In this document: piece after piece, positions 4,985 through 63,158 of the stretch
How the letters are laid out: each line of letters starts with the position of its first letter
How positions within the stretch are numbered: position 1 is the stretch's first letter
Origin: Pseudomonadota bacterium
GTDB lineage: Bacteria > Pseudomonadota > Gammaproteobacteria > Burkholderiales > Burkholderiaceae_C
Assembly (NCBI GenBank): GCA_039798085.1
Contig: JBDKGR010000001.1
Location: 2,147-66,146 of the forward strand
Reading direction: 5' to 3'
DNA: 64,000 nt
Position numbers and translations under genes: made by a program
Notes under the pieces: model-generated
The model's database searches: none
The model's input: only the letters and a program-made list of their open reading frames with translations
What the model was told of the DNA's origin: nothing

Positions 4985-7955
4985 GATGTTGATCCAGAGA
5001 GTAGATATTCAGTTGCAAGAGCCGCGCCAAAATGGTGTTATCGGGCATTTCGGGCGTGTAATCGTGCCAACCATAGGCATGGGCTACAGCGATGTCCAGT
5101 TGTTCGTGCAGGTATTTGAGCCAAGGCGGACGGTAGTTGTAAAGATGCGTCAGGGTGCGTTCTTGTAGGTTGGTCAGCGCGAATTCATCCAAATCCGGTT
5201 TCGGCAAAATGCGGTCAGGGTAGGGCGATTCGGTCATTCCGTGCGGAACAATTTCTGGCACTTGGTGCGTCCATTCCGGTGGATTGAGCCAGTTTTCCCG
5301 CAATTCGTTCAAGTGATGGGCTGCTTTGGCAATGTTGTATGCTATTGTTTTAGGAGCTGCTTGTGCAATATCCACGGGCGTTACAGCCGTTTTTCTTCTT
5401 ATTTCAATAGCCCCTTCCAAACCTGCCGGAATCAACACACCATCTATTTCTTCCACGCGTTGGTGCGCGGTATCAGCGGGAGTGAAGTTTTCAGGGAATG
5501 GGAACGTTTCAAAGCAGGATTTAGCGTTGTACGTGGGCGTTCCACATCCATGTATAGACCCTTGCGCTAGCGACCACACTGCATGAATACGAGAACTGAG
5601 AACGCCAAAGGTTACATCATCCGCACGCGCAACCACATTGAGTCGCGTATCCGGCAAGATGGAAGGATGCAAAAACACAAAAATGCGGTGCTTGGCTACG
5701 CGCGTAGTGGCTAAATAGCGCGGTAAACCGGATAAAGCCTTGCGCAATTCTGGGCGCGGACGTTCGTGTAGCCACCAGTTTTTCAAGAGGTTGATTCGGC
5801 TTCGTTCTGGCTTAACATTCGCAAGAATATGGGCATAAGGCGCTTCAAATAACTGGGCTTCGTGTTCGCTTATATGGGTTCCAAAATCAATAATCCATTT
5901 ATCGCTGGGATGCGTTGCTAAATCCCGTCCATTGCGCCAAGGTTTAAGAACCAGCGCATTGGATTTGCCGCCCACATTGGGGAGTTTGAGCCATTCGCGT
6001 GCTAAATTTCCCGCAATATCAAATTGACCGTATTTTTTAGTACCCTCAAAAATCGCGTGGGCGTTGACTGCTAAACGTTGGGATTGGGTCAAATCGACCA
6101 ACATTCCATCCGTCAAATCGGTATGGATGCAGGAAACGGATTCTCCATTTAGGCGCGTATCGGTCGTGAATTCATGCTGCCCGAAGCAGGTAATAGAAAT
6201 CCGAACACCAGCACCTTCATTGACCCATTCGTTATTGCTCCACGCTTCAAAAACGCGGTGATTTTTTCCAATCGTATCCAGTACCACGCGATTAGACCCC
6301 GCCCGAATCGCCTGTGTAGAAACCAAACCAGCGGCACGTAACAACCCCGCTGCAATCTGGGTTTGCGCCCGTTCAAACCAATAGCACACCAAATCCGCCC
6401 CACCGGGTACACGGTGCGTAAAAACGGTATCGAGCGCATCGAAGTAGGCATCGCCCAATTCGCGGCGCTTTTTACTACCACCAATAAACGGCGGATTGCT
6501 CATCACAATATCGGCTTTGGGCCATGTGGCTTCGGTTACTTCTCCGGTTTGGGGGTTGATTGCCAAAAGCGCATCGCGTTGGTCAATTAAATCCAATGGC
6601 GCTAAAACTGGATGGAGCTTGAAGGGAAATTTATGTTCCAAACGCCATTGCAATTCACCAATCCACACCGTGATGCGAGCGAGTTCGGCGGCGTATTCGT
6701 TAATCTCAATGCCCAGTACATTGTGCGGGCCGGTGACCAAATCGGCTTCTCGATCCAGTCCTAGCGTAACGGCATCGAGGTGCGTTTGCAGCTCCAAATC
6801 CTTCAACGCCTTCAACCCCATAAACAAAAAGTTGCCGCTACCGCAGGCGGGATCAAGCAAGCGAAAGGCTTTGAGGTGTTCCAACCAATCCGTAAAAACC
6901 ACACGGGCGGCTTTGTAATGCTTATCGTTTTTTTTCTTACTTTGTGCTGTGAACGCCCGTATTTCCTGCATTGCTAGCTCCCATTTTTGGTGCAATGGAC
7001 GGGTTAAAACGGGGTCGGTAATGCGTTGGATGGTGGCGGGGTCGGTGTAATGCGCTCCAAGCTGGCTGCGTTTGGCGGGGTCTAAACCGCGTTCAAACAG
7101 CGTGCCGAGAATGGATGCGTCAATCGCGGACCAATTCATGGCGGCGGCATGGCGCAGCTCGGTGATTTCCATAATGGTCAGTTCGGGAACATTCACCACC
7201 CGAAACAATCCGCCATTGAACCAAGGAATTTCTTCTGCGCCAAACATCCCACCATCGTGCATGGTGGCGAATAAATTGTGCAGCCCTTTGCGCAAGTTTT
7301 TGCTGTCAATATAGCGGTTGCGCAGCAGTTGGACAAAAACGGGGGTGGGCAAAATCCCAATGCTTTCGGCAAAAAAGCAAAAGACGCACTGGGTCAAAAA
7401 GTGAGCGACTTCATCGGCGACACAACCGCGTTTGCGCATTCCCTCGGCGATGATGGCAAAGGTGTTGGCGGCACGTTCGGTAATATCGCGGCAGGTTTCG
7501 TGCGGGCGAAAATGCTCTACATCCGTCCACACGCGGCGCAAAATCGACCGCAAAACGGGGCTATCCATGTCCTCCAATGTGAAAAGAAACTTTCCACTAG
7601 GATGCCCCGTAAAGCGGCTGTGAATCTGAATGCGCTTGCGATCACACACCACCAACAGCGGCGGATTGTTCAGCGAGTGGCTGTACATCAAAAGCTGTTT
7701 CAGCGCTTCATCTAAATTGCCGTCGGGTTTTTTGTTCTCCCACACAAAATGATTGGGGTAGAACACGTCGGCAAATCCGGTGCGTGCGCCAATCATTGTC
7801 GCTTTTTCTTCAAACCGATAGCCGTCTATCGTCCCGGGGGGCGGCACGTCAAGCAACGCGCACAAATCCAAAAAATAACTTTGTGCGCCCTGCTCTTCAT
7901 TGAGCAAGGATGCGGGAGGCGTGCTCCATTTGGTAACGAATTCGGAAGGGGTCAT
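4977..7955 (-). CDS. MmeI/YeeA-like fused restriction endonuclease-N6 adenine methyltransferase (type IIL/IIG-like)
   Basis: N-terminal ADVF...WENK PD-(D/E)xK motif, GAHYT, motif I LDPACGSGNF, motif IV NPPF and a C-terminal TRD region. Start placed at MTPSEF (7955). Confidence 0.88.
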   Translation of the reverse strand: MTPSEFVTKWSTPPASLLNEEQGAQSYFLDLCALLDVPPPGTIDGYRFEEKATMIGARTGFADVFYPNHFVWENKKPDGNLDEALKQLLMYSHSLNNPPLLVVCDRKRIQIHSRFTGHPSGKFLFTLEDMDSPVLRSILRRVWTDVEHFRPHETCRDITERAANTFAIIAEGMRKRGCVADEVAHFLTQCVFCFFAESIGILPTPVFVQLLRNRYIDSKNLRKGLHNLFATMHDGGMFGAEEIPWFNGGLFRVVNVPELTIMEITELRHAAAMNWSAIDASILGTLFERGLDPAKRSQLGAHYTDPATIQRITDPVLTRPLHQKWELAMQEIRAFTAQSKKKNDKHYKAARVVFTDWLEHLKAFRLLDPACGSGNFLFMGLKALKDLELQTHLDAVTLGLDREADLVTGPHNVLGIEINEYAAELARITVWIGELQWRLEHKFPFKLHPVLAPLDLIDQRDALLAINPQTGEVTEATWPKADIVMSNPPFIGGSKKRRELGDAYFDALDTVFTHRVPGGADLVCYWFERAQTQIAAGLLRAAGLVSTQAIRAGSNRVVLDTIGKNHRVFEAWSNNEWVNEGAGVRISITCFGQHEFTTDTRLNGESVSCIHTDLTDGMLVDLTQSQRLAVNAHAIFEGTKKYGQFDIAGNLAREWLKLPNVGGKSNALVLKPWRNGRDLATHPSDKWIIDFGTHISEHEAQLFEAPYAHILANVKPERSRINLLKNWWLHERPRPELRKALSGLPRYLATTRVAKHRIFVFLHPSILPDTRLNVVARADDVTFGVLSSRIHAVWSLAQGSIHGCGTPTYNAKSCFETFPFPENFTPADTAHQRVEEIDGVLIPAGLEGAIEIRRKTAVTPVDIAQAAPKTIAYNIAKAAHHLNELRENWLNPPEWTHQVPEIVPHGMTESPYPDRILPKPDLDEFALTNLQERTLTHLYNYRPPWLKYLHEQLDIAVAHAYGWHDYTPEMPDNTILARLLQLNIYSLDQHHG
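5341..5390 (+). repeat. Dispersed ~50-bp quasi-palindromic repeat, copy 1 (in-frame inside the RM gene)
   Basis: gctattgttttaggagctgcttgtgcaatatccacgggcgttacagccgt aligns without gaps to 62623-62672, 56637-56688 and the reverse complement of 20951-21000. Confidence 0.85.
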
Positions 7956-7965
7956 GGATGGGGTT

Positions 7966-8229
7966 TCAATAATGATTACGCAACTGAGCAATCAGCAATG
8001 CACCATCCACTACTTGGTAAACCATGCGATGTTCATCGGTGATGCGGCGCGACCAAAAACCAGATAAAGCGTGCTTGAGCGCTTCTGGTTTTCCTACCCC
8101 GGTGAAAGGATCGCGCTGGGTTTCACGGATAACACGGATAAGTTTGTTGATGCGTTCCACCATGCGCCGATCCTGTTTTTGCCAGTAAAGGTAATCTTCC
8201 CACGCCTCATCTGCAAAAATCAGTTTCAT
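7966..8229 (-). CDS. yoeB: Txe/YoeB family toxin (ribosome-dependent mRNase)
   Basis: AWEDYLYWQ...GKPEALKHALSGFWSRRITDEHRMVY...LRNHY. Confidence 0.93.
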   Translation of the reverse strand: MKLIFADEAWEDYLYWQKQDRRMVERINKLIRVIRETQRDPFTGVGKPEALKHALSGFWSRRITDEHRMVYQVVDGALLIAQLRNHY

Positions 8230-8477: not shown

Positions 8478-8497
8478 AGTAAAACTCCTGTAATTTT

Positions 8498-11573: not shown

Positions 11574-13073
11574 TTATTTTTTATTTTTCGTTTTTTTACC
11601 ACGGATTACGGGTAAGCCCTTCAAATAGTTTAAGGCTTGTATCAACTGAAAATCATCGGATGATCCTACCAAAGGATTTATTAATTTTCGTTTGATGAGA
11701 GGTTTTTGTTCTTCTTCTTCTAATCGGGCGAGGATTTTTTCACGCACCAACTGACGCGCCTGTTGTTGTGCTTTGTCCGCTATTACCTCGGCAGGGGATT
11801 TTTTTTCTACATCCTGATCATTGGGAAGGTGGTTGTGCAATTCGGATTCATACACCTGCAATAGGGAATAAAAGTTGCCTTTTTCCGTTTCATCCAGCAG
11901 CACATCAGGCACAAGACCTTTCGCTTGAATGGAGCGACCGCTGGGCAGGTAATAACGTTCAACGGTGAATTGAAACCCAGTGCCCGCCCCCAATCCATAA
12001 AACGTTTGTACCAACCCTTTGCCAAAGGTGGTGTTGCCCATCAGAGTGGCACGTTGATAATCCTGCAACGCACCCGCCACCACTTCGCTGGCAGAGGCCG
12101 AACCTTCATTCACCAGAACAACCATAGGAACGGTTTGGAGGATGACCGGAAATCTCTGGCGCGATGTTTTCAACGTTCGGTTGCTACCCCATGCACGCCC
12201 TTTGGTGCGCATGACGACCGTATTTTCCGGCAAAAAAGCAGAGGAAAGGGTGATAGCAGAACTCACCAATCCTCCCGGGTTGCCTCGCAAATCCAGCACC
12301 AATCCTTGAGGATGCGGATTTTCCTTATAAAGTGCGTTCATTTTTTGGGTGAAATCTTTCACCATGCCCTCATCAAAATCGTTGATATACACCCAAGCAA
12401 AGCCCGGTGCTATCCATTTGGTGCGCACTTGTGGCCACCTAATGTCTTCCCGATTCATGACCACGGTAAAGGTGCGATGCTCTTTTTTGCGAAATACCGT
12501 CAGGCGCAATCCGCTTTTGGATGTGCTGCGCAGTTGCTGGATCACATGGCTGTATGTCTGCCACTGAACGGATATGCCACCCACATGGGTAATCAAATCC
12601 TCGGGTTGCAAGCCTGCACGGCGAGCGGGAGAGTTTTCAACTATTTCACCAATTTTCAGCCAACCATCCTCCACTTTTTCCAGTTTGATTCCTGTGCCCA
12701 TCATCCGATTGGGTGTGCCTTTGAATTTTTTGAATTCTTTTGGGCCCAAATAATAAGAATGGGGTTCAAGGTGATTCACCATACCGGAAATGGCTCCGTC
12801 AATGAGTTGTTTATTGCTCACCGAATCGGCATATTCATTCTTCAACAGATTAAAAACGGTTATCAGTTGGAATAATTCTTCGGGGTAGTGGGTGAAAACG
12901 TGAAAAACCGTGGTCAATGACCGCACGGTTTGGGATACCCTTTCCATTGATCTCGAACTGGGTTCTAGCTCTGTGTCCGATTCATATTCGTACCCATAAT
13001 ACGATGCCCACATACCCAAAGCCACGCAAAAACTGAACCACACCACCGTTTTGAGTTGTTGCCACATTGCCAC
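11574..13073 (-). CDS. S41 family C-terminal processing peptidase, divergent paralogue
   Basis: PDZ region, DLRGNPGG, NEGSASASE (catalytic Ser) and FGKG (catalytic Lys); shares near-identical DNA blocks with the upstream S41 gene. Confidence 0.88.
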   Translation of the reverse strand: MAMWQQLKTVVWFSFCVALGMWASYYGYEYESDTELEPSSRSMERVSQTVRSLTTVFHVFTHYPEELFQLITVFNLLKNEYADSVSNKQLIDGAISGMVNHLEPHSYYLGPKEFKKFKGTPNRMMGTGIKLEKVEDGWLKIGEIVENSPARRAGLQPEDLITHVGGISVQWQTYSHVIQQLRSTSKSGLRLTVFRKKEHRTFTVVMNREDIRWPQVRTKWIAPGFAWVYINDFDEGMVKDFTQKMNALYKENPHPQGLVLDLRGNPGGLVSSAITLSSAFLPENTVVMRTKGRAWGSNRTLKTSRQRFPVILQTVPMVVLVNEGSASASEVVAGALQDYQRATLMGNTTFGKGLVQTFYGLGAGTGFQFTVERYYLPSGRSIQAKGLVPDVLLDETEKGNFYSLLQVYESELHNHLPNDQDVEKKSPAEVIADKAQQQARQLVREKILARLEEEEQKPLIKRKLINPLVGSSDDFQLIQALNYLKGLPVIRGKKTKNKK

Positions 13074-13167
13074 ATTGTCACAATATCATAGAAAATAAAA
13101 AATTAATAACAAATAAATAACAAATAAATAACAACAACTTTTTACAATGGGTTCGTACAATTATTTT

Positions 13168-14637
13168 TTAGTAGTTATCTTCTTTATCTTTATCCTTGGA
13201 TTTTTCTTTGCGTTCTACTTGGGTTTTACTCACCACAACCGCCACACCTTTGAGGTGATTTAAGGCTTGAATCAACTGGAAATCTTTGGGCGATCCAAAT
13301 TCAGGGGGTTTGCGATCGGCGGGGGATTTGCGTGATTCTTCATCCAAGCGTTTCATGGCTTCTTCACGGGCTTTTTCTTGGGCTTTTTCTTTCTCAGGGT
13401 CTTTCACCTCTTCGCCTTGACCGCTGGTGATATGCTTACCCAAATCGGCTTCCCGCATCCGCAGAGCGGCGTAAGGGCTACCTTCTGCGGTATCGTCCAC
13501 TAACACGTCGGGCACAATCCCTTTGGCTTGGATGGAGCGTCCATTGGGTGTGTAATAACGTGCCGTGGTAATTTTCAAACCCGTATCAGGCCCCAGCGGA
13601 CGGAATGTTTGTACCGAACCCTTGCCAAATGTTTGGCTACCCATGATGACGGAACGTTTGTAATCTTGCAACGCACCCGCCACAATTTCGCTGGCAGAGG
13701 CCGAACCTTCATTCACCAGCACCACCATCGGAATTTTCTTGAGGGCTGCGGGGAGTTTTTTGATGGGATCAGGGGAACCATCGCGTGCCGAATAATCTCG
13801 GACATTCGTTTTCAAGATTTGCTTGCTGTCTTGTGTTTGCCCGTTGGTCGTAACCACCGTCACATTGGCGGGCAAGAAAGCGGCAGAAATAGCCACTGCT
13901 GCATTCAATAATCCCCCCGGATCGTTGCGCAAATCCAAAACCAAACCTTTGATATTAGGGTCTTGTTTATAGAGTTCTTCTATTTTGCGGGAAAAATCTT
14001 CCACCGTACGTTCTTGAAATTGGCTAATGCGCACCCAAGCGTAACCGGGTTCCACCACTTTGGCGCGTACCGATTGCTGCTTGATTTCTTCCCGAATGAT
14101 GGTGACGGGAAAGGTGCGATTTTCGTCCTTGCGAAATATCGTCAAAATCACCTTGGTTTGGGGTTCTCCGCGCATTTTTTTCACGGCTTCGGTCAAACTC
14201 AATCCTTTGACGGCGGTGTCATCAACGCGCGTAATCAAATCGTTGGTTTTCAATCCAGCACGAAAGGCGGGCGAGCCTTCAATCGGGCTGACGACTTTGA
14301 CCAAACCGTCTTCCATATTCACTTCCAAACCCACGCCGACAAATCTGCCGGATGTGCCTTCTTTGAATTCTTTGAACGCTTTTTTATCAAAGTATTGTGA
14401 ATGCGGATCAAGGCTTGTCACCATGCCGGAAATGGCTTCGGTGATGAGTTTTCGCTCATCCACCGGTTCCACATAATCACTTTTCAGGATACTGAAAACT
14501 GCTGCCAACTGCTGCAATTCTTCCAGTGGCAAGGGGGACATGGCACTACGCGCAACCGTTTGCAACGATACCGAAGTCAGTGCCCCTGCTATCACGCCAA
14601 TACCAATCCAACCTGCAATTTTCAGTTTTTGACCCAT
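13168..14637 (-). CDS. ctpA: S41 family carboxy-terminal processing protease
   Basis: LDPHS, PDZ domain, DLRNDPGG, SASASE and GKGSVQ; canonical position downstream of gpmA. Confidence 0.93.
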   Translation of the reverse strand: MGQKLKIAGWIGIGVIAGALTSVSLQTVARSAMSPLPLEELQQLAAVFSILKSDYVEPVDERKLITEAISGMVTSLDPHSQYFDKKAFKEFKEGTSGRFVGVGLEVNMEDGLVKVVSPIEGSPAFRAGLKTNDLITRVDDTAVKGLSLTEAVKKMRGEPQTKVILTIFRKDENRTFPVTIIREEIKQQSVRAKVVEPGYAWVRISQFQERTVEDFSRKIEELYKQDPNIKGLVLDLRNDPGGLLNAAVAISAAFLPANVTVVTTNGQTQDSKQILKTNVRDYSARDGSPDPIKKLPAALKKIPMVVLVNEGSASASEIVAGALQDYKRSVIMGSQTFGKGSVQTFRPLGPDTGLKITTARYYTPNGRSIQAKGIVPDVLVDDTAEGSPYAALRMREADLGKHITSGQGEEVKDPEKEKAQEKAREEAMKRLDEESRKSPADRKPPEFGSPKDFQLIQALNHLKGVAVVVSKTQVERKEKSKDKDKEDNY

Positions 14638-16728: not shown

Positions 16729-17775
16729 ATGAAAATCGTTGTTTTAGGAGGCGGTGCGTGGGGAACCGCGCTTGCCATCAACGCCGCCACTCACAGTACG
16801 CATGACGTGACGTTGTGGGTACGCAATGCCGATCAAGCCGCCAGTATGCGGGCACATGGTGAAAATCGGCGCTATTTGGCGGGTGTTTCGCTTCCTCACA
16901 ATGTGTCCATTCATTCCGAGCTATTCGCGCCCGAATCGCAATGGGTGAATGCCTTGCAATCCGACGATTTACTCATTATTGCCACACCCATGTCGGCATT
17001 GCGTGATTTTTTGACCGCATTGCACCAATGCCAATGTAAAGCCCCAATCGCATGGCTGTGCAAAGGTTTTGAAATGGGTGTTGGTACAGAAAAAGGGCTG
17101 CTAGGGCACGAAATACAAGCGTTGGTAGCTCCTAATTTAAGAGCAGGCGTTCTCAGCGGCCCGAGTTTTGCGCAGGAAGTCGCTACGGGACAACCGACTG
17201 CCTTGGTCGCCGCCAGTGTGCATTCCGATGTGCGCGATGCCTTGGTCGCTGCTTTTCACAATTCCAGCCTGCGCGTATATGCCAATGACGACATCGTCGG
17301 CGTAGAAGTAGGCGGTGCGGTGAAAAATGTGCTGGCGATTGCCACCGGATTGTGCGATGGTCTGCAACTCGGCTTAAACGCCCGCGCCGCGTTGATTACC
17401 CGAGGTTTGGCAGAAATGACCCGCCTCGGAATCGCTTTGGGTGCGCGTTCGGAAACCTTTATGGGATTGAGCGGATTGGGCGATTTGGTTTTAACCGCAA
17501 CGGGCGATTTATCGCGCAATCGCCGTGTGGGGATGGCGTTGGCGCAAGGCAAAACGCAACAAGAAGCCACTGAAATGCTCGGACACGTTGCCGAGGGCGT
17601 GTACAGCGCCCGTACCGTGGTACAACGGGCGCAGAGCGTGGGGGTTCAGATGCCCATCGCGCAATGTGTGGTCGATTTGCTTGATGGGCGTTTGCACGCT
17701 GCACAAGCCGTGCAGCAGTTGATGGCGCGTTATCCTGCTTCTGAAACGTTTGCCGAAACTTTGGCAGTAATGTGA
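16729..17775 (+). CDS. gpsA: NAD(P)H-dependent glycerol-3-phosphate dehydrogenase
   Basis: [22 protein letters not shown] and GLGDLVLT...SRN. Confidence 0.96.
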
Positions 17776-25329: not shown

Positions 25330-26970
25330 ATGAACAATCAAAATTCTCTTTACTACGGAGATAACCTCAATGTATTACGTGAATCCATTGCCGATGAATC
25401 GGTGGATTTGATTTATCTCGATCCGCCATTTAATAGCGCACGGGATTACAACATTTTATTTGCATCACCCAAAGGGGCATCCAGCGAAGCGCAGATTACC
25501 GCCTTTGAAGATTCGTGGCACTGGAATCAGCAAGCGGAATCAGAATTCAACGAAATCATGCACCAGAGCAACACTGCTGTGGCGGAGATGATGGATGCAC
25601 TGCGCCGTTTTTTGGGTGAAAACGACATGATGGCGTATCTCACCATGATGGCGAATCGTTTACTGGAATTGCACCGTGTTTTGAAACCCACTGGAAACCT
25701 TTATCTGCACTGCGATCTTACCGCATCGCATTATTTGAAAATTGTATTGGATGGCGTTTTTGGAAAAAACAACTATCGCAGTGAAATTTCATGGTTACGT
25801 TCGCAACCAAAAAGTCACGGAACGACGAATTTTTCTAATTGCCGTGATATTATTTTCCGTTATGCGAAATCAGATCAAACAAAATTTTTCAAAGTTTATG
25901 GAAAATATAATAAAGATTATTTGAAGAACTTTTATAAATACCAAGATTCTGACGGAAGAATATATAGCCTTGATAATCTTGCGAATCCGAATAAAAAACG
26001 CCCTAATCTCACTTATGAATTTTTGGGTGTAACACGGGTTTGGCGTTGGACAAAAGAACGAATGCAAAAAGCATGGGAGGACGGTTTAATTGTTCAATCC
26101 AAGACGGGAGCTATTCCACGCTTTAAGCGTTATTTGGATGAAATGCACGGGCAGCCGATAACGAATAACTGGAATGATATTGAACATTTACATGGAAGTA
26201 ATGACGAATTTTTGGGTTATCCAACCCAAAAACCGGTAGCGCTTTTAGAGCGCATTATCGAAGCCAGTACCAATGAAGGCGATGTCGTTTTAGACCCATT
26301 TTGTGGCTGCGGTACAGCCGTTCATGCGGCGCAAAAATTGGGACGACAATGGATTGGAATCGACATTACCCATTTAGCCGTAAGCCTGATTGAAAAGCGT
26401 CTGCGCGATGCGTTTCCCGATAGCGTTTTTGCCATTGAAGGCACGCCCAAAGATTTGGAAGGGGCGCGGGATTTGGCGAATCGGGATAAATACCAATTTC
26501 AATGGTGGGCGTGTTCGCTGGTTAATGCCCAACCGTATCAAGGCAAGAAAAAAGGCGCGGACGGTGGTATTGATGGGCTGATTTATTTTCAAGATGGTTC
26601 TGGCGATAAAAACGATAAACAGCACAAAAAGATTATTGTTTCCATTAAAGGTGGTGGCAATGTGAACGTGGCAATGGTGCGGGATTTGGCACACGTTGTT
26701 AAGCGCGAAAAAGCCCATATCGGATTATTCGTGACGCTCACCCCGCCGACCAAACCCATGCTCGTAGAAGCGCTGAAAGAAGGTTATTACGAAAGCCCCT
26801 TGTTTCCACCGAATGCGTTTCCTGCGATTCAAATTCTCTCGGTCGAAGGTTTATTGGAGGGGACAGAACGCCCGCGTTTCCCCGATTTGGGACGTGGCAT
26901 GACCACCTTTAAGAAAGCAAAATTGGAAGAGAAAACAATCGATCAAAAAGGATTTTTCGATGAATCTTGA
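25330..26970 (+). CDS. Beta-class N4/N6 DNA methyltransferase with C-terminal Mrr/restriction-endonuclease-like domain
   Basis: Motif IV DPPF near the N-terminus, YPTQKP, motif I LDPFCGCGT, then GADGGIDG...IIVSIKGG. Confidence 0.87.
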   Translation: MNNQNSLYYGDNLNVLRESIADESVDLIYLDPPFNSARDYNILFASPKGASSEAQITAFEDSWHWNQQAESEFNEIMHQSNTAVAEMMDALRRFLGENDMMAYLTMMANRLLELHRVLKPTGNLYLHCDLTASHYLKIVLDGVFGKNNYRSEISWLRSQPKSHGTTNFSNCRDIIFRYAKSDQTKFFKVYGKYNKDYLKNFYKYQDSDGRIYSLDNLANPNKKRPNLTYEFLGVTRVWRWTKERMQKAWEDGLIVQSKTGAIPRFKRYLDEMHGQPITNNWNDIEHLHGSNDEFLGYPTQKPVALLERIIEASTNEGDVVLDPFCGCGTAVHAAQKLGRQWIGIDITHLAVSLIEKRLRDAFPDSVFAIEGTPKDLEGARDLANRDKYQFQWWACSLVNAQPYQGKKKGADGGIDGLIYFQDGSGDKNDKQHKKIIVSIKGGGNVNVAMVRDLAHVVKREKAHIGLFVTLTPPTKPMLVEALKEGYYESPLFPPNAFPAIQILSVEGLLEGTERPRFPDLGRGMTTFKKAKLEEKTIDQKGFFDES

Positions 26971-29613: not shown

Positions 29614-32600
29614 TTAATACACAAAGAAGTTATTAGCCGTTAAATCCGACAAGGTCGTAGTTCCTGTCAACGTGACGGTTGCTAACTGCGTCACATCCAG
29701 ACCGTTTGTGCCCGTGTGCGCACTACCCACATACCAAACCTGATTTTCAGTACCATTGTTGAACACCAGTACCAATCCGTTATCCATACCAGTAACCGTT
29801 GCACTTGCCATTGCTGCATCAACGGCTGCGGCAGAATTCCAAGTAGGTTGGGCATCGGTAATGACCCAAATGTTGTCATCGGCGGTAGGTATAATTCCGG
29901 CTGCCGTTCCGCTATTGAACACTTTGGTGGATGTTCCGGTTAAACGCAACTCACCTCTATTGTCCCCAACAGGGGTATCTTTGAACGCCAAAATATCCGT
30001 GTTAGTGAATGTGGAAACCGATTGGGTATGAAGGTACTTGTAAATCGCTTGAACGGCTGGGTTTCCTGCAACTTCTCTTCCATCGGTATACGCGGCATTT
30101 GCCGGAGTTGCCAAATCGGTAATCGAATTCGGATTTCCATTGTTGGCAGTATAAGTTACATCAAAAGCCGTTGCGGCAGGTGACCCCAAAGTCAAAATCA
30201 CTTTGTTGGAATCTGCACCCGTTCCGATTACTGCGTTAGTTACTGTATTTCCCGTCACTGTGTAATCACCTATTTCAGGTGTTCCTGTTAAGGCTTCAGA
30301 ATAAGTAAGCGTTACAGTTGTTCCGTTTGCAGATATAGGTGCGTTCATCCAAGGTGAAGTGGCATCTGCGACTATATCCAAAACAATCGCATTAGGATCG
30401 GTCAAGCCCGGAAACGGTATATTCGTTCCATCTTGTAGAATTGCTCCGGTTGGGATTTCCAAATGGTATTTATTGCCAGCTAAAAGTTCAGTACAACTGA
30501 AACTCAAACGTCCCTGATTATTTGAGGAATAAAAATAGACTTTACTGGTATCGGTCACGTCAATGGTAATATCTGCACCACCCGAATCATTTTTCAACAC
30601 CAGATTACCAGTACCTGCATGAACAGGGTGACTAAAGGTGGTGTTATAGCTGGAATTAGGTTCCATCCTGCTTGGTCCATTTCCGGTGTACATCAACGTA
30701 GGGAATCCATCGTAGGAAATATCCGATGCTCGCAGTGTATAGTCATACGCGGCATTCGCTGGATTTGCCAAATCGGTAATCGAATCGGGCGTTCCATTGG
30801 TAGCGGTATAAGTCACACCTGTGAGGCTGGCAGTGGTAACCGGAGTTCCCAAAGTCAAAATCACTTTGTTGTTATCTAAACCTGCCCCGATAGATGCCGA
30901 AGTAACCGTATTGCCGCCTACCGTGTAATCCACCACTTCAGCCGTTCCCGCCAACGCTTCGGAATAGGTAAGGGTCAAAGTAGCTCCATCAGCAGATACA
31001 ACGGCGTTTTGCATACGGGGTTGCATAGCATCCGCTACGACATTCAAAACAAGTGCAGTAGGGTCTGTCAAACCACCAAATGGCGTATTAGTTCCATTTT
31101 GCAATATCGCTCCGGCTGGAATTTCTAAATGGTAATTATTGCTAACTACAAGCCCAAGATTACTGAGATGTAGCTCGCCGTAACCATTTGTATAGGAAGA
31201 GAAACTGACTTTACTTGCATCCAATACGTCAATGGTGATGTCTGCCCCAGCAACAGTATCATTTTTCAACACAAGATTTCCAGCGCCTGCGTGAATTGGA
31301 CTGCTAAACCTAGCAATAGTAATATTGCCCGAAGTAGGTTCCACCCTGATTGCATACCCCGTGTACAACAACGTCAAAATTCCATCGTAGGTAATTTCCG
31401 AGGGTTGTAACGTAGAGGTATAAGCAGCATTCGCTGGAGTTGCCGCATCTTTAATGGAATTCGGCGTTCCATTCGTAGCGGTATAAGTCACCCCCGTGAG
31501 GCTGGCACTGGTAACCGGAGTTCCCAAAGTCAAAATCACTTTATTGCTATCCGCGCCCGTTCCGATAATTGCCGCAGTAACGGTATTTCCAGCTACTGTG
31601 TAGTCGATTTTCTCCACCGTTCCGGTTAAGGGTTCGGAATAGATTATGGTTAAAGTTGTACCATCAGCAGATACAACGGCACTTCGCATATGAGGTGGCA
31701 CGGCATCCGCGACCACATTCCAAACAATCGCATTGGGGTCAGTCAAACCACCGAACGGTGCATTGTCACTATTGCGCAATATCGCTCCGGCTGGAATTTC
31801 CAAATGGTACTTCTGACCGACTACAAGCCCACTATTTCGCAAACTGACATCCCCTCGTTGCACACCGCCGCTATACGTATAGGAGTTAAAAATAACCTTG
31901 TTGGTATCGGTCACATCAATGGTGATGTCTGCTCCACCCGAATCATTTTTCAGCACCAAGTTACCAGTACCTGCATGAACAGGGCTGCTGAAAGTAGGGA
32001 TATTCCAATACGAAGTAGGATCAACTGTTCTCGGATTTCCGGTGTACATCAACGTAGGGAATCCATCGTAGGTAATTTCCGAGGGTTGTAACGTAGAGGT
32101 ATATGCAGCATTTGCTGGATTTGCCGTATCTTTAATCGAATTCGGCGTTCCATTCGTAGCGGTATAAGTTACCCCCGTGAGGCTGGCACTGGTAACGGGA
32201 GTTCCCAAAGTCAAAATCACTTTGTTGTTATCTGCACCCGTTCCGATAATTGCCGCAGTAACGGTATTGCCGCCTACTGTGTAATCACCCAATTCCACCG
32301 TTCCGGTTAAGGCTTCGGAATAGGTAAGGGTCAAGGTCGTTCCATTTGCCGCTACCGAAGCATTTTGCATCCAAGGTGCTCTAGCATCCGCAACGACATT
32401 AAAAACAAGTGCAGCAGGGTCAGTCAAACCGGCAAATGGTGCATTGTCACTATCGCGCAATACCGCTCCGGCTGGAATTTCTAAATGGTACTTCTGACCG
32501 ACTACAAGCCCAGCATCTCGCAAATTGAAATTCCCTCGTTGTAAACCGCTACCATCCGTATAAGAAACAAAAATAACTTTAGCCGTATCCAATACATCAA

Positions 32601-35600
32601 TGGTGATGTCTGCTCCACCGGTATCATTTTTCAACACCAAGTTACCAGTGCCTGCATGAACTGGGCTGCTGAAGGTAACAACATTCGTCAGAATAGGATC
32701 AGTTTGTTGCATACCGGTGTGCATCAGCGTCAAAATTCCATCATAGGTAATTTGTGATGCTGGTAATATGTCACTATACGCAGCATTGGAAGGAGTTGCC
32801 GTATCTTTAATTGAATCCGGCGTTCCATTCGTAGCGGTATAAGTCACATCCATGCGAATGGCACTGGTAACGGGAGTTCCTAAAGTCAAAATCACTTTGT
32901 TGTTATTTGCACCCGCTCCAATTACCGCATTGGTAACCGTATTGCCGACTACCGTGTAATCCGATGCTTCTGCCGTTCCCGCTAATGCTTCGGAATAGAT
33001 TATGGTTAAAGTTGTACCATCAGCAGATACAACAGCGTTTTGCATATGAGGGTGCGTGGCATACGAGACCACATTCAAAACAATCGCATTGGTGTCAGTT
33101 AAACCACCGAACGGTGCATTGTCACTATTGCGCAATACCGCTCCGGCTGGAATTTCTAAATGGTACTTTTGACCGACAACAAACTCAATATTATTGAAAT
33201 ACAAAGACCCGTGGCTGATGAAATTCCAAAAACTGACTTTATTGGTATCGGTCACGTCGATTATGATGTCTGCTCCACCGGTATCATTTTTCAACACCAA
33301 ATTACCAGTGCCAGCATGAATAGGGCTGCTAAATTGTGCACTAAAACTCGTCGTAGTAGGCATAATTGTTTCCGGCTGTCCCGTGTATATCAACGCAAGA
33401 AATCCATCGTAGGAAATATCCGAGGGTTGTAACCTAGAGGTATATGCAGCATTGGAAGGAGTTGCCGCATCTTTAATGGAATTCGGTGTTCCATTGGCAG
33501 CGGTATAAGTCACGTCCGTGCGAATGGCACTGGTAACGGGAGTTCCTAAAGTCAAAATCACTTTATTGCTATCCGCGCCCGTTCCGATAATTGCCGCAGT
33601 AACGGTATTTCCAGCTAATGTGTAATCACCAGCCTCTGCCGTTCCCGCTAATGCTTCGGAATAGATTATGGTTAAAGTTGTACCATCAGCAGATACAACG
33701 GCACTTCGCATATGAGGTGGCGTGGCATCCGCGACAACATTCAAAACAATCCCTGTGGGGCTACTCAAACCTGCAAAAGATTCATTATTTGCATCCAATA
33801 TTGCGCCCGATGGAATCGTCAAATGGTAGTTATGACCCGCTACAAGCCCTAACGCGGAAGTATGCAGTTTCGTTTTTCCTTGCGATGTTCGGTAGGTTGC
33901 AACCTCAATTTTGCTCGTATCGGTTATATCAATATTGATATTGACTGGATTCACAGTGGAGTCATCGACCAAAACTACCGTACCCGTTCCGGCGTGAACT
34001 GGTTCGTTAAAAATGATTTCAGTCATTGGTGAGGTCGGATCAATTCTAAACGTTTGATTGGGGGTGACCAATATAGGAGCTGTACCAGATGTAGAGGGAG
34101 GGGCAACCGTTGAACCATTCGTAACCGCAGCCAGCATTTGGTCGACAGCATTATTGGGTGTGGTTGCCGCATCTTTAATCGAATTAGCTGTTCCAGCGGA
34201 AGCGGTGTAAACCAAGTTGGATACGGTAGCTGCGCTATCCAATGCGGTTGCCAATGTCAGGGTAACTTGATTATTGGTAGTGCCTGTAATAGCAGCCGTT
34301 GCCCCTGTGAGGTTCACACCCGTAGCAGCGTAATCGGCTACTTCAGGCGTTCCAGTCAAGGCTTCGGTGTACGTGATAGTTAAAGTTTTGCCATCTGCTG
34401 CTACAGCAGCACTTCGCATAAAAGGCGGTGTGGCATCTGCTACGACATTAAAAACAATCCCTGTTGGGCTACTCAAACCCGCAAAAGATTCATTATTTGC
34501 ATCCAATATCGCGCCCGATGGAATCTCTAAATGGTAGTTATGACCCACTACTAACCCAAGATGGGAAAGGTTCAAGCTCGATATTCCATGTTGGTTAGAC
34601 GAATTAGTCGAGAATGAAACTTTACTGTTATCCGTTACATCCACGTTGATATTTGATCCACCTGAATCATTGACCAAAACCACAGTACCCGTTCCTGCAT
34701 GAACTGGCTCGTTAAATTCAAGCCAAGGAGTCATCGTCGAATCAACTCTAATGGTTTGGTTGGGGAGGGTTACTAAAACAGGAGCTGTACCAGATGTAGA
34801 GGGAGGCAAAACCGTTGAACCATTCGTAACCGCAGCCAGCGTTTGGTCGACAGCATTATTGGGTGTGGTTGCCGCATCTTTAATCGAATTAGCTGTTCCA
34901 GCGGAAGCGGTGTAAACCAAGTTCGATACGGTAGCTGCACTATCTAACGCCGTTGCCAATGTCAGGGTAACTTGGTTATTGGTAGTGCCTGTAATAGCAG
35001 CCGTTGCCCCTGTGAGGTTCACACCCGTAGCAGCGTAATCGGCTGCCTCAGGTGTTCCGGTCAAGGCTTCGGAATAGGTGATAACAATTTGCGTACCATC
35101 CGCAGAAACTGCTGCACTGCTCATGGTGGGTGCGGTGGTATCGGCAACAACGGGCGCAACCGTTGAACCATTGGTGAAATTGGTAGTCAATATTTGAGTG
35201 GTTGCAGCGGTATTGGGTGTTGGGGTCGCAGCATCCTTAATCGAATCGGAAACCCCGTTATTAGCCGTATAAGTGAATAATCCAGAAAGCGTTGCCCCTT
35301 GAATAACAGGCGTACCTAATGTCAAAATCACTTTATTGTTATTTGCACCCGTTCCAATCACTGCATTCGTAATGGTGTTGCCAGTCCAAGTGTAATCCGA
35401 TGCTTCTGCTGTTCCAGTCAAAGGTTCGGAGTATGTAATGGTCAAAGTCACCCCATCTGCTTCTAAGGCAGCACTCAATATTGTGGGGGCGGTGGTATCA
35501 GGTGCTGGAACAGTCGAATTATTCGTAACCGTCGCCCATGTTTGCGTAGTTGCGGCATTGGGTGTTGGAGTTGCCGCATCTTTAATCGAATTAGGTGTTG

Positions 35601-49937: not shown

Positions 49938-50426
49938 ATGACCCAAAGCTTTGCTACCTGCGATTTTTGCGACGAATATAAGAACGATTCCACTGGCGAA
50001 TTCCGCGTTCTTCCCCCCGTTTTTAAGGATTTTGGTGCAGTCAAAAAATTCTCCGGCGCAGTCGAAACCGTGAAATGTTTTGAAGATAACACCCTCGTCA
50101 AAGCCGCTGTGGATTCTGCCGGACATGGCAAAGTGCTGGTGGTGGATGGTGGTGGATCGCTGCGTCGTGCCTTGTTGGGCGGCAATTTGGGCGCGGCGGC
50201 TGCCAAAAACGGCTGGGCGGGCGTGGTGATTGATGGCTGCGTGCGCGATACCGCTGAATTAGCAGGTCATGCCGTCGGCATCCGCGCCCTTGCTGCCATG
50301 CCTTTGCCTACGGAAAAGCGCAAAGAAGGGCAATCGAATGTCGCGGTGCAAATTCAAGGCGTATGGGTGCGTCCGGGGGATTGGCTCTATGCCGATGAAG
50401 ACGGTATCGTCATTATGGCGAAGTAG
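49938..50426 (+). CDS. rraA: RraA family protein (RNase E regulator / HMG aldolase-like)
   Basis: TVKCFEDN, VLVVDGGGS, GCVRD and ADEDG. Confidence 0.93.
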   Translation: MTQSFATCDFCDEYKNDSTGEFRVLPPVFKDFGAVKKFSGAVETVKCFEDNTLVKAAVDSAGHGKVLVVDGGGSLRRALLGGNLGAAAAKNGWAGVVIDGCVRDTAELAGHAVGIRALAAMPLPTEKRKEGQSNVAVQIQGVWVRPGDWLYADEDGIVIMAK

Positions 50427-51306
50427 TCGCCAACACCACGCCCGCGAGCGCCATCGCAAATGCGATCGCTTGCAGGGCGTTGAAAGACTCCCCCAAGACC
50501 AGCACGCCCACAGCGGCAGCAGAAATGGGAAGCATCACCGTAAAAACCCCCGCGCGGGAGGCGGGAACGCCTTGTAAACCCGTCATCCATAGCCACACGC
50601 TCCACACGCTGGCCGCCATCGCATAAAACAGCAGCAGCCCCACCGTGGAGGTCGTAAGGGCGAAAAAATCAAATTGCCACGCCGCATAAAGCCCTAGCGG
50701 AGTCATCAGCAAAAATCCCCATAAATTGATAAGCGCCGTAATCCGTTTCGGCGACACCGTTCCCGTGAGTTTTTTGCCAATTACGGCATACGATGCCTCG
50801 CACACCACTGCCAAAAATACCAAGAAATTGCCCGCTATAGCACTAGGGCTGTGCGTAGTATGCTGCGAATTTGATAGCACCGATAGCGCCGATAGCATAA
50901 TCCCCAGCGCACCCAACGCCACCGAAAAGCCTACACGTAGGGTGATTTTCTCTTTCAAAAAGCGCCAACTCAACAATGCGACTACCGCCGGAATGGTCGC
51001 CATAATGACTCCGGCGGATACGGCACTGGTCATGCTCACGCCAAATAGCATCGTGATGGAAAAAAGAAAATTGCCTAAAAACGCCTCTAAAAATAACAAA
51101 CGCTTGGTTGGTGCATCCAAGGGCGGTTCGTGCGGTTGGCGCGGCAACCAATGCAGCATCGCTAATCCGCCAATGCCAAAGCGCAGCCACGCCAGCAAAA
51201 ACACGCCAAAAACCATGACCAGAGTCTTTGAGAGCGCGACATAACTCCCCACCAAAGCCATACTGAGCGCTAAAAAAAAGTACGATAGCGCGATATTTTT
51301 CACCAT
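50413..51306 (-). CDS. DMT/EamA family transporter
   Basis: About 10 hydrophobic segments in two EamA-like halves. Confidence 0.88.
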   Translation of the reverse strand: MVKNIALSYFFLALSMALVGSYVALSKTLVMVFGVFLLAWLRFGIGGLAMLHWLPRQPHEPPLDAPTKRLLFLEAFLGNFLFSITMLFGVSMTSAVSAGVIMATIPAVVALLSWRFLKEKITLRVGFSVALGALGIMLSALSVLSNSQHTTHSPSAIAGNFLVFLAVVCEASYAVIGKKLTGTVSPKRITALINLWGFLLMTPLGLYAAWQFDFFALTTSTVGLLLFYAMAASVWSVWLWMTGLQGVPASRAGVFTVMLPISAAAVGVLVLGESFNALQAIAFAMALAGVVLATTSP

Positions 51307-53784: not shown

Positions 53785-54834
53785 ATGCACGCACTTCACC
53801 TTTATGCAGGCGCTTCTGCCTATGCTGCCATCGCCCGCAATGGATTGCAAGCGGGAGATATTTGCACCATTCCCGCAGCCGCTGGAGGCCCCAAGGGTTT
53901 GGTTTTGGGTGCGTTGGATCGTTTTATTTTTGGTGATTGGTTGCCCCAATCCCAGCAGCCGATTGATTTAGTTGGTGCATCCATCGGTGCATGGCGCATG
54001 AGCAGTGCCTGCTTCAACAATCCGCGCGTCGGTTTGGCACAACTGGAGTACGACTATATCCATCAGCATTACGCTGATGCGGCTAGTGTCAGCAAAGAAT
54101 TCGGGCAAATTTTGCATTCTTTTTACCGAGGTCGGGAACACGAGGTGATCCATAACCGCCGTTATCGCCTGCACATCATGACGGCTAGAGGACGGCACTT
54201 ATTGCGCACCGAGCATCCTTGGCTCACGCCGATGGGCTACACCGGAGCCTTCATCAGCAATTTGGTACGGCGCAAAGCGCTGGGCTGGTGGTTAGAGCGG
54301 GTGGTATTTTCTAATCCCCATGCGGCGTTACCATTTGCTACGGGGGATTTTCCGACGCAACAAATTCCGTTTAATGCCCACAATTTAATTCCAGCGGTGT
54401 TGGCGAGTTGCTCGATTCCTTTTGTGTTGGATGCGGTTTCTGATATTCCCAACGCCCCCGCCGGTGCATATTGGGATGGGGGGATTACCGACTACCATCT
54501 GCATCTTCATTATCGAAGCGAGAAAAACGGCATTATTTTGTATCCCCATTTTCAGAAAGCCGTCATCCCGGGTTGGTTGGATAAGCATTTGCTTTGGCGA
54601 CACCGCGCGACTTCTGCCTTGGATCATGTGCTGCTGCTTGCACCGAATCCAGAATGGATCAAAACATTGCCTAATGGCAAGCTCCCAGATCGTACCGACT
54701 TTGCCCGCTATGGCAAAGATGGACGCAGCCGTATTCATGCGTGGAAGAGCGCCTGCCGTGCCAGCACCCAACTCGCCGATGAATTCGCTGCATGGCTTGA
54801 AAGACCAGATTGTGGGAGGGTACAAACCCTGTAA
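53785..54834 (+). CDS. Patatin-like phospholipase
   Basis: AAGGPKGL, GASIG nucleophile elbow and DGG. Confidence 0.85.
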   Translation: MHALHLYAGASAYAAIARNGLQAGDICTIPAAAGGPKGLVLGALDRFIFGDWLPQSQQPIDLVGASIGAWRMSSACFNNPRVGLAQLEYDYIHQHYADAASVSKEFGQILHSFYRGREHEVIHNRRYRLHIMTARGRHLLRTEHPWLTPMGYTGAFISNLVRRKALGWWLERVVFSNPHAALPFATGDFPTQQIPFNAHNLIPAVLASCSIPFVLDAVSDIPNAPAGAYWDGGITDYHLHLHYRSEKNGIILYPHFQKAVIPGWLDKHLLWRHRATSALDHVLLLAPNPEWIKTLPNGKLPDRTDFARYGKDGRSRIHAWKSACRASTQLADEFAAWLERPDCGRVQTL

Positions 54835-58445: not shown

Positions 58446-58482
58446 CAAAAAATTAGTAAAAAATTAGCAAAAAATTCTTATT

Positions 58483-59508: not shown

Positions 59509-60346
59509 CCGTATAAACCAACGCCCCAATCACCACCGCCCCCCCGATTAAAACAGTAGATTCAGGAACTTCGCCCGCGCCCGCCCACGCCAACAGGATA
59601 CCGAATACCACCTCCAGCAGCGCTAAAAGCGACAATTCCGGCGCTTTCAACACGCGGGCGCACAGCACCGATAGCACGCACGGCACAGCGAGTTGGAAGA
59701 CCCCTAAAAACGCCAATAATCCGACATCATGCCCCGTTGCTTGAAACGGAAATGCCAACGGCAAAGTTGCCAAGCTGCTGATGGTTGCACCCACTAAAAC
59801 CGCTGGAACCAAATCCACATCATGCCCTTGGGTGTGGGAATTTTGCACAATCGTCCAGTTACAGGCACTTGCCAAGGGAACGCACAAGGCAATGAGGCTT
59901 CCCAACCACTGACCGCCCCCCAGTTGCGCACCGTACATATACACAATCCCTGCACCCGCCACCGCAATGGCAAACCAAGTGCGGGTAGCGATGCGATGCC
60001 CAATGAAAATTCGCGCAATTAACGCTGTAAAGAGCGGCCCCAACGCAAGGGTGATAAGCACATTGGCAACGCTGGTTAAGGTCATCGCCAACATAAAGGT
60101 GGTGAACATCACTCCCCAACACAAACCGGATAACCAAAAACTCCATCCGGCATGGCGCATATTGGCAAACACGCGCCATCCCCGCAAGCTGGGCAGAATG
60201 AAAAGTAGCGCCAATGCCGTGAAGCAAGAGCGCCAAAATGTCACTTCAAAGCTACGGGCAGCGTCCAAATGGCGCGTTACCACGCCAGCGGTTGCCCACA
60301 GGAAGGTGGCAAGCACCATCCATGCAACGGCTCGATGGTGGGTCAC
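59489..60346 (-). CDS. DMT/EamA family transporter
   Basis: About 10 TM segments with EamA-like repeats. Confidence 0.87.
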   Translation of the reverse strand: MTHHRAVAWMVLATFLWATAGVVTRHLDAARSFEVTFWRSCFTALALLFILPSLRGWRVFANMRHAGWSFWLSGLCWGVMFTTFMLAMTLTSVANVLITLALGPLFTALIARIFIGHRIATRTWFAIAVAGAGIVYMYGAQLGGGQWLGSLIALCVPLASACNWTIVQNSHTQGHDVDLVPAVLVGATISSLATLPLAFPFQATGHDVGLLAFLGVFQLAVPCVLSVLCARVLKAPELSLLALLEVVFGILLAWAGAGEVPESTVLIGGAVVIGALVYTVKKTDV

Positions 60347-60364
60347 AAAACCTCGTATTCGTAT

Positions 60365-62188: not shown

Positions 62189-62207
62189 AGTGCTAAGTTT
62201 CTTTCTT

Positions 62208-63158
62208 TCATAATTTTTTCATAATTTGTTCGATTTCGAGGGGACTCAAAAGCCGCTTCGGAATCAATTCGTGGTGTTGGATATGCGCCGTTCCCAGCAA
62301 GCTACCGGATTGCGCTGCATAGACAGCAACCTGTGCCGCATCCGCCCAATCACCGCGACGCGCCAAACCGTTCAAAAAGCGTGCGGCATTATCGGCATCC
62401 AATGTGACGGTGGTGTGGTGTTCCAATAAAGAATCGACTGGCAATAAATATGCCCCCCGTTCTTCTTCCGACATCGCTTCCAATGTTTCCAACGTCACGC
62501 ACTGGGCAATGGAAAATCCACCCGTACCGATGCGACGCAAGCGACTCAAATGTGCGCCGCAACCCAAGGCTTCACCAAGGTCTTCGCCGAGGGTGCGGAT
62601 ATACGTCCCTTTGCTGCATCGAACTATCATTTTGATAGCTGGTCGTGCAGTATCCACGGGCGTTACAGCCGGATTGGGTGTTAATTCCATAGCCAAGGAA
62701 TGAATCGTCACGGGACGGGCTTCGCGTGCCACTTCAATGCCTGCGCGTGCGTATTCGTACAGCGCTTTGCCGTCTTTTTTGAGCGCACTGTGCATGGGCG
62801 GAGTTTGCTGAATCGCTCCAGTGAACTGCATGGCAACCCGCGCAATATCGGCATCCGTCACATGGACGGGACGCTCGGCGATGATTGCTCCTTCGGCATC
62901 CCCCGTGCTGGTTTGAATTCCCAGTAAAACGGTGGCTTCGTAGGTTTTATCGGCATCCAGTTGCAACTGGCTGAATTTGGTGGCTGCACCAAAACACAGC
63001 GGCAACACCCCGCTTGCCAACGGGTCTAGTGTTCCCGTGTGCCCCGCTTTTTCTGCCCGCAACAGCCATTTCACTTTTTGAAGAATGTCATTGCTTGACC
63101 AGCCCAAGGGCTTATCCAACAACAAAACCCCGTGGACGGGGCGACGTTTCGTAGCCAT
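62208..63158 (-). CDS. truB: tRNA pseudouridine(55) synthase
   Basis: LLDKP, GHTGTLDP, PPMHSALK and CSKGTYIR. Confidence 0.97.
   Translation of the reverse strand: MATKRRPVHGVLLLDKPLGWSSNDILQKVKWLLRAEKAGHTGTLDPLASGVLPLCFGAATKFSQLQLDADKTYEATVLLGIQTSTGDAEGAIIAERPVHVTDADIARVAMQFTGAIQQTPPMHSALKKDGKALYEYARAGIEVAREARPVTIHSLAMELTPNPAVTPVDTARPAIKMIVRCSKGTYIRTLGEDLGEALGCGAHLSRLRRIGTGGFSIAQCVTLETLEAMSEEERGAYLLPVDSLLEHHTTVTLDADNAARFLNGLARRGDWADAAQVAVYAAQSGSLLGTAHIQHHELIPKRLLSPLEIEQIMKKL
62623..62672 (+). repeat. Dispersed ~50-bp repeat copy, in-frame inside truB
   Basis: 40/50 identical to 5341-5390 (hand count), including an identical 21-mer tatccacgggcgttacagccg. Confidence 0.87.

Follow-up and report, generated by a model that had tools for sequence, protein, structure and literature searches.

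Seven copies of a two-module DNA motif in the window

The 64,000-nucleotide stretch analysed here (contig JBDKGR010000001.1 of assembly GCA_039798085.1, a Pseudomonadota bacterium; positions 2,147 to 66,146 of the forward strand; hereinafter the window, to which positions given without a contig refer) is part of a 2.40-Mb, 50% GC, 88%-complete assembly. It carries a dispersed DNA motif of about 65 bp, found both between genes and, in frame, within unrelated protein-coding genes, among them those identified by Pfam as encoding an MmeI-type restriction-modification (RM) enzyme, SMC and TruB. An earlier reading of the window (hereinafter the sequence-only reading) had described four copies of a ~50-bp element in the manner of the Rickettsia palindromic elements (RPEs). 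All four were recovered in place, ungapped and in register, along with the three in-frame peptides and their open frames, and the MmeI and TruB copies are indeed identical over 21 bp; however, a sequence profile gives seven copies in the window rather than four, and the motif extends to about position 64. The TruB copy begins with ACT and not with the GCT of the proposed consensus. The copies, with one example of each module, are as follows:

5341..5404 (+): motif copy, 50-bp core at 5341-5390 with an AT-rich tail; antisense in the MmeI-type RM gene, 4977-7991(-); 49.5 bits
5341..5357 (+): module 1 example, the 17-bp dyad GCTAY-N7(AT-rich)-RTAGC, unchanged in all dialects seen
5364..5383 (+): module 2 example, motif positions 24-43, 6 bp past module 1; here mostly ..GCA-N9-R GCGTT
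6930..6993 (-): additional weak motif copy within the MmeI gene, 4977-7991(-), in a minor frame; 27 bits
17081..17144 (-): additional motif copy within the glycerol-3-phosphate dehydrogenase gene, 16729-17775(+); exact pattern match; 33 bits
20937..21000 (-): intergenic motif copy between the convergent BLUF gene (end 20944) and cyanophycin synthetase gene (end 21017); 42 bits
50815..50878 (-): additional weak motif copy within the EamA transporter gene, 50413-51306(-), in a minor frame; 27 bits
56637..56700 (+): motif copy, sense, in the SMC hinge region; 43 bits
62623..62686 (+): motif copy, antisense in truB, 62208-63158(-); 47 bits

The MmeI copy codes for TAVTPVDIAQAAPKTIA at residue 868 and the SMC copy, found in this genome only, for APKNVAATALSTGVTSH at residue 610; in TruB, module 1 codes for AIKMIV, directly ahead of the CSKGTY motif. 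Module 2 of the intergenic copy forms a perfect hairpin, which folds as had been claimed (z -4.2), and the same copy gives a terminator-like match with a chance expectation of 1.0. A motif pattern, drawn up post hoc, is matched exactly five times in the window, the corresponding figure for 100 shuffles being 0.00.

Starting from the four original copies, we iterated a 50-bp profile without gaps and, at a cut-off of 20 bits, recovered 344 matches genome-wide against 0 in the reversed genome, corresponding to 328 non-overlapping copies in 2.4 Mb. There were 0 matches in 391 kb of G005 and in 400 kb of G050, the two motif-free genomes used for comparison below. The scan thus bears out, far beyond the window, the suggestion of a dispersed family occupying core and accessory genes on either strand. 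By our own gene calls (89% coding), 253 copies lie in genes, 53 are intergenic and 22 fall on gene ends. Two preferred frames hold 211 of the 253 in-gene copies, split evenly between sense (105) and antisense (106). Among matches of at least 25 bits, the density is 101 per Mb within genes versus 265 per Mb outside them, and it is 14 per Mb in the tenth of genes with the lowest GC content at third codon positions (GC3; low values being our stand-in for foreign origin) versus about 150 in native-looking genes.

Anatomy and chromosomal arrangement

The whole motif comprises a fixed 17-bp dyad, a second module that is specific to the species, and AT tracts in phase. Module 1 (positions 1-17) has the form GCTAY-N7-RTAGC with an AT-rich centre, and its conservation is 0.86-0.98 at positions 1-3 and 0.98-1.00 at positions 15-17. 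Six loose bases separate it from module 2 (about positions 24-43), which is followed by a GC-rich step, an AT tract at 51-54 and a further AT tract at 62-63. Both modules are dyad-like, with their centres 23 bp apart, and the AT tracts near positions 9, 30, 52 and 62 lie about whole helical turns from one another. The spacers are variable and conservation is sharply position-specific; mean pairwise identity between copies is 53%, near-identical copies being confined to larger duplications. A dyad followed by a second module had been recognised in the sequence-only reading, and that much stands, but the hairpin is not general: two of the five window copies fold better than shuffles, and neither dyad shows hairpin covariation across 285 copies. 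Searches against Rfam returned 0 matches at the gathering threshold in the window and three sub-threshold hits in 15 loci. An RNA or single-strand hairpin family is rejected by the lack of an Rfam match, the lack of covariation and the equal sense and antisense counts. Conservation of this kind is the mark of a site recognised as double-stranded DNA, and it is neither hairpin-like nor what a mobile element of young age would show.

This anatomy bears on one explanation of the motif, namely that it is bound by a chromosome or nucleoid protein with sequence specificity, acting as a dimer of dimers; its sites would be required about once per 7 kb, and ordinary selection would both create and keep them, in co-evolution with that protein. 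This is the chief rival of the self tag proposed below, and we consider it a possibility, if a rather doubtful one. It would lead one to expect a pair of dyad-like modules spaced as here (23 bp from centre to centre), with AT tracts in phase, and the geometry presumably recalls LysR- and Fis-type sites. The near-constant density, about 137-150 per Mb in all five genomes measured, also suits it, as does the arrangement of close inverted pairs, which were located at 13 places among nine of 58 genomes, this genome having none. Eight of these 13 (L336, L337, L339, L340, L341, L344, L345 and L347, from six genomes) are tail-to-tail with a fixed span of 103-104 bp and share positions 41-64; six of the eight lie between convergent open reading frames (crude calls), with no common neighbour. 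The chromosomal layout, however, speaks against such a site. Copies are spaced near randomly (coefficient of variation 0.86-0.99), apart from a scarcity of close neighbours (8 pairs below 500 bp versus 21 +/- 4 expected). The complete, single-contig chromosome G010 shows no origin-terminus gradient (Kolmogorov-Smirnov p 0.27) and no gap at its skew switch, across which 5-9 copies occur per 50 kb; strand polarity was likewise rejected there (38/62, p 0.10). KOPS, Chi, matS and SBS are polarised or terminus-linked chromosome motifs, and the present motif differs from them in having, in G010, neither strand polarity nor origin-terminus bias. Moreover, weak per-site selection is hard to reconcile with the fact that hundreds of proteins have been recoded.

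Conservation at the DNA level

Across syntenic 400-kb stretches of three species (80-91% identity), sites were shared in 45/46, 45/45, 42/42, 42/44, 45/45 and 45/47 comparisons, with 8-14 copies in each lacking alignable flanks; stability of this order is again as a chromosome site would have it. The exceptions are one intergenic empty site (64-89 bp, no duplication) and two length-neutral changes. Within genes, the synonymous third positions at motif positions 3 and 15 were kept 38/39 and 40/40 times between G010 and G001, which are 81% alike, whereas the same codons elsewhere were kept in 19-32% of cases. When synonymous codons were redrawn, the 215 in-gene matches fell to 2, 3 and 0. The motif is, therefore, conserved at the DNA level, and the A-I-x-x-I-A peptides that recur in these proteomes are a reflection of selection on the DNA. 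The motif is a signal carried by the DNA, building up in place and held by selection or drive. Besides insertion, the sequence-only reading had offered a family of DNA-binding sites as an alternative, and it is this alternative that the conservation favours; we infer that a sequence-specific protein exerts the pressure.

Sites written over existing codons

The principal process put forward in the sequence-only reading was RPE-like insertion of the element into genes with the addition of peptide loops. Insertion of a whole element would add 16-21 residues, and the lengths of orthologues with and without the motif are accordingly informative. TruB has one length across the site in 30/30 genomes, whether the motif is present or absent, and the site crosses genera with local dialects; the truB copy is an old site common to several genera. 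In an alignment with a solved TruB, AIKMIV pairs with ELELEI, a segment that we take to be a core strand, and a 10-residue gap precedes it. The truB of this genome also has six extra residues past the 3' end of the motif (62660-62695) relative to 111/120 homologues. The SMC copy is absent in 30/30 relatives, in which the stretch measures 62-71 residues (62 in 20 of them) against 67 here, a net change of about +5 rather than 16-21. The MmeI loop behaves differently: of the 120 homologues listed, the best 40 were aligned, and in four of these it has 62-67 residues versus 80 here, about 17 fewer; many other MmeI homologues have a motif-like peptide at the same place, as seen at the protein level rather than in their DNA.

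Near-neutral length is the rule more broadly. Relative to motif-free G005, 24 of 29 cases could be anchored, of which 14 are net zero and 21 lie within four residues, the largest gain being +6 and one case being -26; the glycerol-3-phosphate dehydrogenase copy is net -1. Nine of 11 cases relative to motif-free G050 range from -1 to +10. Seventeen of 38 copies with a motif-free orthologue align gaplessly, and the 14-mers encoded by these share 43% identity with the orthologue, whereas peptides of other copies reach 17% (highest 23% in 2000 draws). Orthologues of unchanged length, the observation that the sequence-only reading had itself named as telling against insertion, are thus found for TruB (30/30) and for most sites tested. 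Most copies have been written over codons already present, with a minority, such as that in MmeI, in expanded loops. What survives of the proposed gain of peptides is the MmeI copy and a minority elsewhere; it fails for TruB and most other sites. Comparison of the three orthologue sets, which had been suggested as a way to find empty sites, gave a similarly divided answer, with shorter loops in MmeI (4/40), length neutrality in TruB and only +5 in SMC.

RPE-like insertion as the main route is, consequently, largely refuted. An attenuated form of it, in which an RPE-like element or one resembling a miniature inverted-repeat transposable element (MITE) was inserted long ago, trimmed by deletions and kept for a secondary use, strikes us as unlikely. 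It would explain why, among 32 unshared cases between motif-bearing genomes (18/81 unanchored; control windows net zero in 1117/1264), five gain 22-36 residues while 10 are net zero, and it draws further on the shorter MmeI homologues, the 63-66-bp patatin gaps described below, the intergenic empty site of 64-89 bp and the weak conservation of spacer and tail. Yet most sites are length-neutral with residue-by-residue homology, one large apparent gain proved to be a loop already long in motif-free G005, covariation is missing, the low mean identity betrays no young family, and no empty allele is listed at the SMC or TruB copies in spanning contigs from three other studies (one record has 22 gap letters, their place not shown). 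Selfish decay, too, would not preserve synonymous positions. Five gap alignments showed no target duplications or terminal repeats, but the species compared are too far apart for such traces to have lasted. As a separate observation, the patatin-like gene at 53785-54834(+) is without the 63-66-bp motif-bearing loop of its counterparts in G010 and G294, reflecting a gain there or a loss here.

Distribution and dialects in Comamonadaceae

The strict two-module pattern was found in 12/24 genus relatives, 0/16 genomes of other families and at least 96/300 Comamonadaceae genomes. The last count is a lower bound because G294 has 0 strict matches and yet carries 55 copies of another dialect per 400 kb. 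Scanning with module 1 alone in 80 hand-picked genomes (71 from the family and nine from other families), we obtained more than 50 matches in 29/71 family genomes, 6-34 in eight and 0-2 in 34, the nine outside the family being at control level. Low-count genomes that were examined hold decayed remnants only. Presence across Comamonadaceae is thus nearly all-or-none. The carriers among the matches listed include Acidovorax (with Acidovorax temperans and A. facilis), Rhodoferax, Polaromonas, Simplicispira, Giesbergeria, Curvibacter and Extensimonas; plasmids yielded one weak match, in Comamonas. Thirteen viral contigs (L131-L143), several of them temperate-phage-like, have one or two copies each, often at gene ends.

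Module 2 differs between hosts. In the G294 dialect, positions 37-42 read AGGGCT in 44/54 copies, and GAGGGC at positions 36-41 occurs in 7/9 G294 copies versus 0/9 of their G010 orthologues. Copies at shared sites lean to the profile of their own host in 44/44 pairs, in a comparison whose profiles include the tested copies, whose pairs are non-independent and which for this genome is partly confounded by GC content. Old sites follow each host's dialect.

The search for a reader or a mobilising protein

No mobilising enzyme had been visible in the window, and none that tracks the motif emerged from the wider search, in which Y1 transposases were included. Matches to the latter occur in 24/25 motif-positive and in 18/25 negative or low genomes, and the four in this genome are not flanked by the motif, all of which again disfavours an old insertion. 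No gene of this genome is flanked by a close motif pair. No small GIY-YIG gene was present among the copy-flanked genes examined, although no search was aimed at the GIY-YIG family. A single-copy Y1 (RAYT-like) protein of ~235 residues, whose kind occurs in the majority of the family genomes searched, is encoded at G000 C2:29163-29867(-), with a weak 13-bit module-1-like stretch just downstream.

As to a reader, this genome has five LysR-type and five Fis-type helix-turn-helix (HTH) matches, none outstanding, which is a further difficulty for a chromosome site; the four LysR-type matches inspected resemble, to judge from context, CbbR, OxyR, the DmlR type and ModE. The candidates HTH_8 and LysR-type were rejected as non-discriminating. 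No plausible reader was seen by eye among basic proteins or genes with an upstream copy, and a screen for gene loss, over 391 kb in G005 and 400 kb in G050, produced eight and seven genes, respectively, none plausible as a reader. Two genes named by eye as HslU- and HslV-like (G000 C23 genes 614 and 625) have no counterpart at the syntenic position of motif-free G005, and the same is true of the window gene at 25330-26970(+), which encodes a DNA methylase fused to an Mrr-like nuclease domain.

Relationship to known repeats and uptake sequences

Pieces of the motif have been noticed once before, the whole apparently not. Tong, Schliekelman and Mrazek (2017; PMC5217627) reported novel, mostly intergenic motif pairs of unknown function in A. 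ebreus, P. naphthalenivorans and R. ferrireducens. Their pair GCTTAT(N5)AAGCG of Acidovorax ebreus (114 copies) corresponds to module 2, and GCTAT-N7-ATAGC, found in A. ebreus and Rhodoferax ferrireducens (the latter leading with 140 pairs), is a module 1 form; these pairs and the present motif are almost certainly the same element. The 2017 survey differs in treating separate pentamer pairs that were not joined into one element, and its accessible text analyses neither dialects nor coding or evolution. In the literature covered, subscription journals and theses being outside that coverage, the element as a whole was not found described, nor is it in the accessible text of PMC3733652, PMC10969869, PMC11893778, PMC3975124, PMC2755013 and PMC3318438; Comamonadaceae genus names, for the terms searched, are likewise absent from that of PMC3733652 and PMC11893778. 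The Verminephrobacter eiseniae repeat VeiPR1, named without a sequence in the portions available of PMC3975124 and absent from those of PMC3318438, is probably a different repeat.

Like the RPEs, which also have TruB as a host, the motif is dispersed, lies in frame in unrelated genes and is also intergenic; RPEs, however, are peptide-adding insertions of about 150 bp (PMC10969869, PMC3733652), whereas the present motif mostly overwrites residues, is without a conserved hairpin and keeps synonymous positions. We do not file it as an RPE since the defining features are not found. With the REP/RAYT and Ssn/SRM systems it shares dispersed short repeats that a host protein would read, but those are single-strand hairpins flanking the gene of their enzyme (PMC3733652, PMC11893778), and neither trait was found here. 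HIP1 of cyanobacteria is an abundant palindromic genome-wide motif reported to be under selection and to raise transformation; it differs as an exact octamer tied to methylases, the present motif being long, spaced and degenerate. The closest likeness is to the DNA uptake sequences (DUS) of Neisseriaceae and the uptake signal sequences (USS) of Pasteurellaceae, which are family-restricted, have dialects round a shared core, occur in both orientations and originate in place (PMC2817400, PMC7811141, PMC3630211); these also show frame bias, scarcity in new genes and coding DNA and, in the USS, AT tracts flanking the core. Their cores are 9-10 bp long, non-palindromic and present at 0.8-0.9 per kb (PMC2817400), whereas the present motif is ~65 bp with a 17-bp dyad, about six-fold sparser and with inverted pairs rare. 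We do not name it a DUS because the core is unlike and the likeness is one of sequence traits.

A candidate tag for self-DNA

The reading that we put forward, with less than even confidence and by analogy, is that the motif may be a protein-read self tag favouring the uptake and recombination of the cell's own DNA, like the uptake sequences of Neisseria and Haemophilus. A multimeric protein would bind the double-stranded motif via four half-sites, and the closer the match of a fragment, the more often it would be recombined back, such that any change toward the consensus could spread wherever the protein product tolerates it. Occasional short gains in length would settle in loose loops, a shift in reader specificity would lead to rewriting of old sites and loss of the reader to their decay into remnants. 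Biased uptake would account for the build-up in place, the conservation, the rewriting of old sites and the near all-or-none presence without calling for a benefit at each site, and under this proposal the two preferred frames (with Ala and Ile/Val codons) would arise because only protein-tolerated changes toward the consensus spread. The motif shares with DUS and USS its strong overrepresentation and even spread, its restriction to one family, dialects round a common core, origin in place, occurrence in both orientations, frame bias, scarcity in low-GC3 genes and in coding DNA, few close pairs and freedom from strand or origin-terminus bias; with the USS it also shares AT tracts next to the core. 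The genome also has ComEC, DprA, ComEA-like and pilin genes, and A. temperans and A. facilis are naturally transformable (PMC4212676). It is conceivable, though we would not call it probable, that Comamonadaceae possess a third, independent self-DNA code after DUS and USS, namely a 65-bp motif in which a universal dyad is joined to a species barcode, which is read by a multimeric protein, has recoded hundreds of proteins per genome (including a conserved TruB segment) and is rewritten at old sites when the barcode shifts.

Several observations weigh against the self-tag proposal. Every uptake-like trait equally fits a selected chromosomal binding site. Compared with known uptake cores the motif is a dyad, far longer and present at about 0.14 per kb, and its inverted pairs are rare. 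Some unshared sites (five of 32) do gain 22-36 residues. Candidate readers fail to discriminate: ComEC (5/5), DprA (5/5) and HHH_3 (5/5) occur in genomes with and without the motif, and PilE-like (35/36) and ComP_DUS (4/5) matches lie on both sides. Relatives that lack the motif have competence genes just as carriers do, and the species-specific transformation of A. temperans can be explained by homology alone. Verminephrobacter eiseniae, the one relative with evidence for selective uptake (PMC4212676), probably lacks this motif, the accessible text of the 2017 survey giving for it one unrelated motif pair only (PMC5217627).

A tag serving some other self-DNA route, such as packaging by transducing particles or gene transfer agents, conjugative nicking or the shielding of incoming DNA against a nuclease of the host, would yield the same in-place drive and dialects, and to this may be added the 13 viral contigs with one or two copies and the gene-less one-copy cassettes interspersed among foreign genes in integron-like arrays. 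The motif has no orientation bias, however, and no machinery of this kind was linked to it, no search having been aimed at any; we hold such a route to be unlikely.

Other features of the genome

Integron-like arrays with attC-like ends lie outside the window, at G000 C111:1188-5757 and C28:90-5410; their AT-rich cassettes resemble, by eye, a cytosine methylase accompanied by a nuclease, and a pair made up of an ATPase and an HNH protein. A ~275-bp gene-less cassette with one motif copy recurs 5-6 times in the G000 arrays at 96-99% identity; such a cassette could tag foreign DNA. At G000 C121:994-1187 and 5088-5281, a 194-bp unit with one motif copy lies in inverted orientation round a prophage-like island next to a seryl-tRNA synthetase-like gene, and the same unit is seen again at C126:5489-5665. 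Unrelated to the motif is a ~123-bp MITE-like repeat with short terminal inverted repeats and at least eight copies of 92-99% identity (G000 C4, C11, C16, C47, C81, C106, C127 and C139). The window further encodes a 2566-residue protein with ~225-residue tandem repeats (SWM_repeat match; 29614-37314, -), likely a surface adhesin, and a tandem pair of S41 carboxyl-terminal protease genes (11574-14637, -).

Implications

In the papers cited here, in the portions available, Neisseriaceae and Pasteurellaceae are the only families named as taking up self-DNA by its sequence. If the proposed tag is real, a third such code, present in a family that is common in freshwater, in soil and in treatment plants, would offer a test of whether a genome can be filled with a signal by biased uptake and nothing else, and from its dialects one could predict where gene flow is impeded. 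If the motif is instead a chromosome site, there would be a nucleoid protein, sequence-specific and as yet undescribed, with sites that take precedence over the choice of codons and amino acids. Under either reading the unexplained motif pairs of 2017 would be accounted for, and either could be assayed directly in culturable, transformable Acidovorax.

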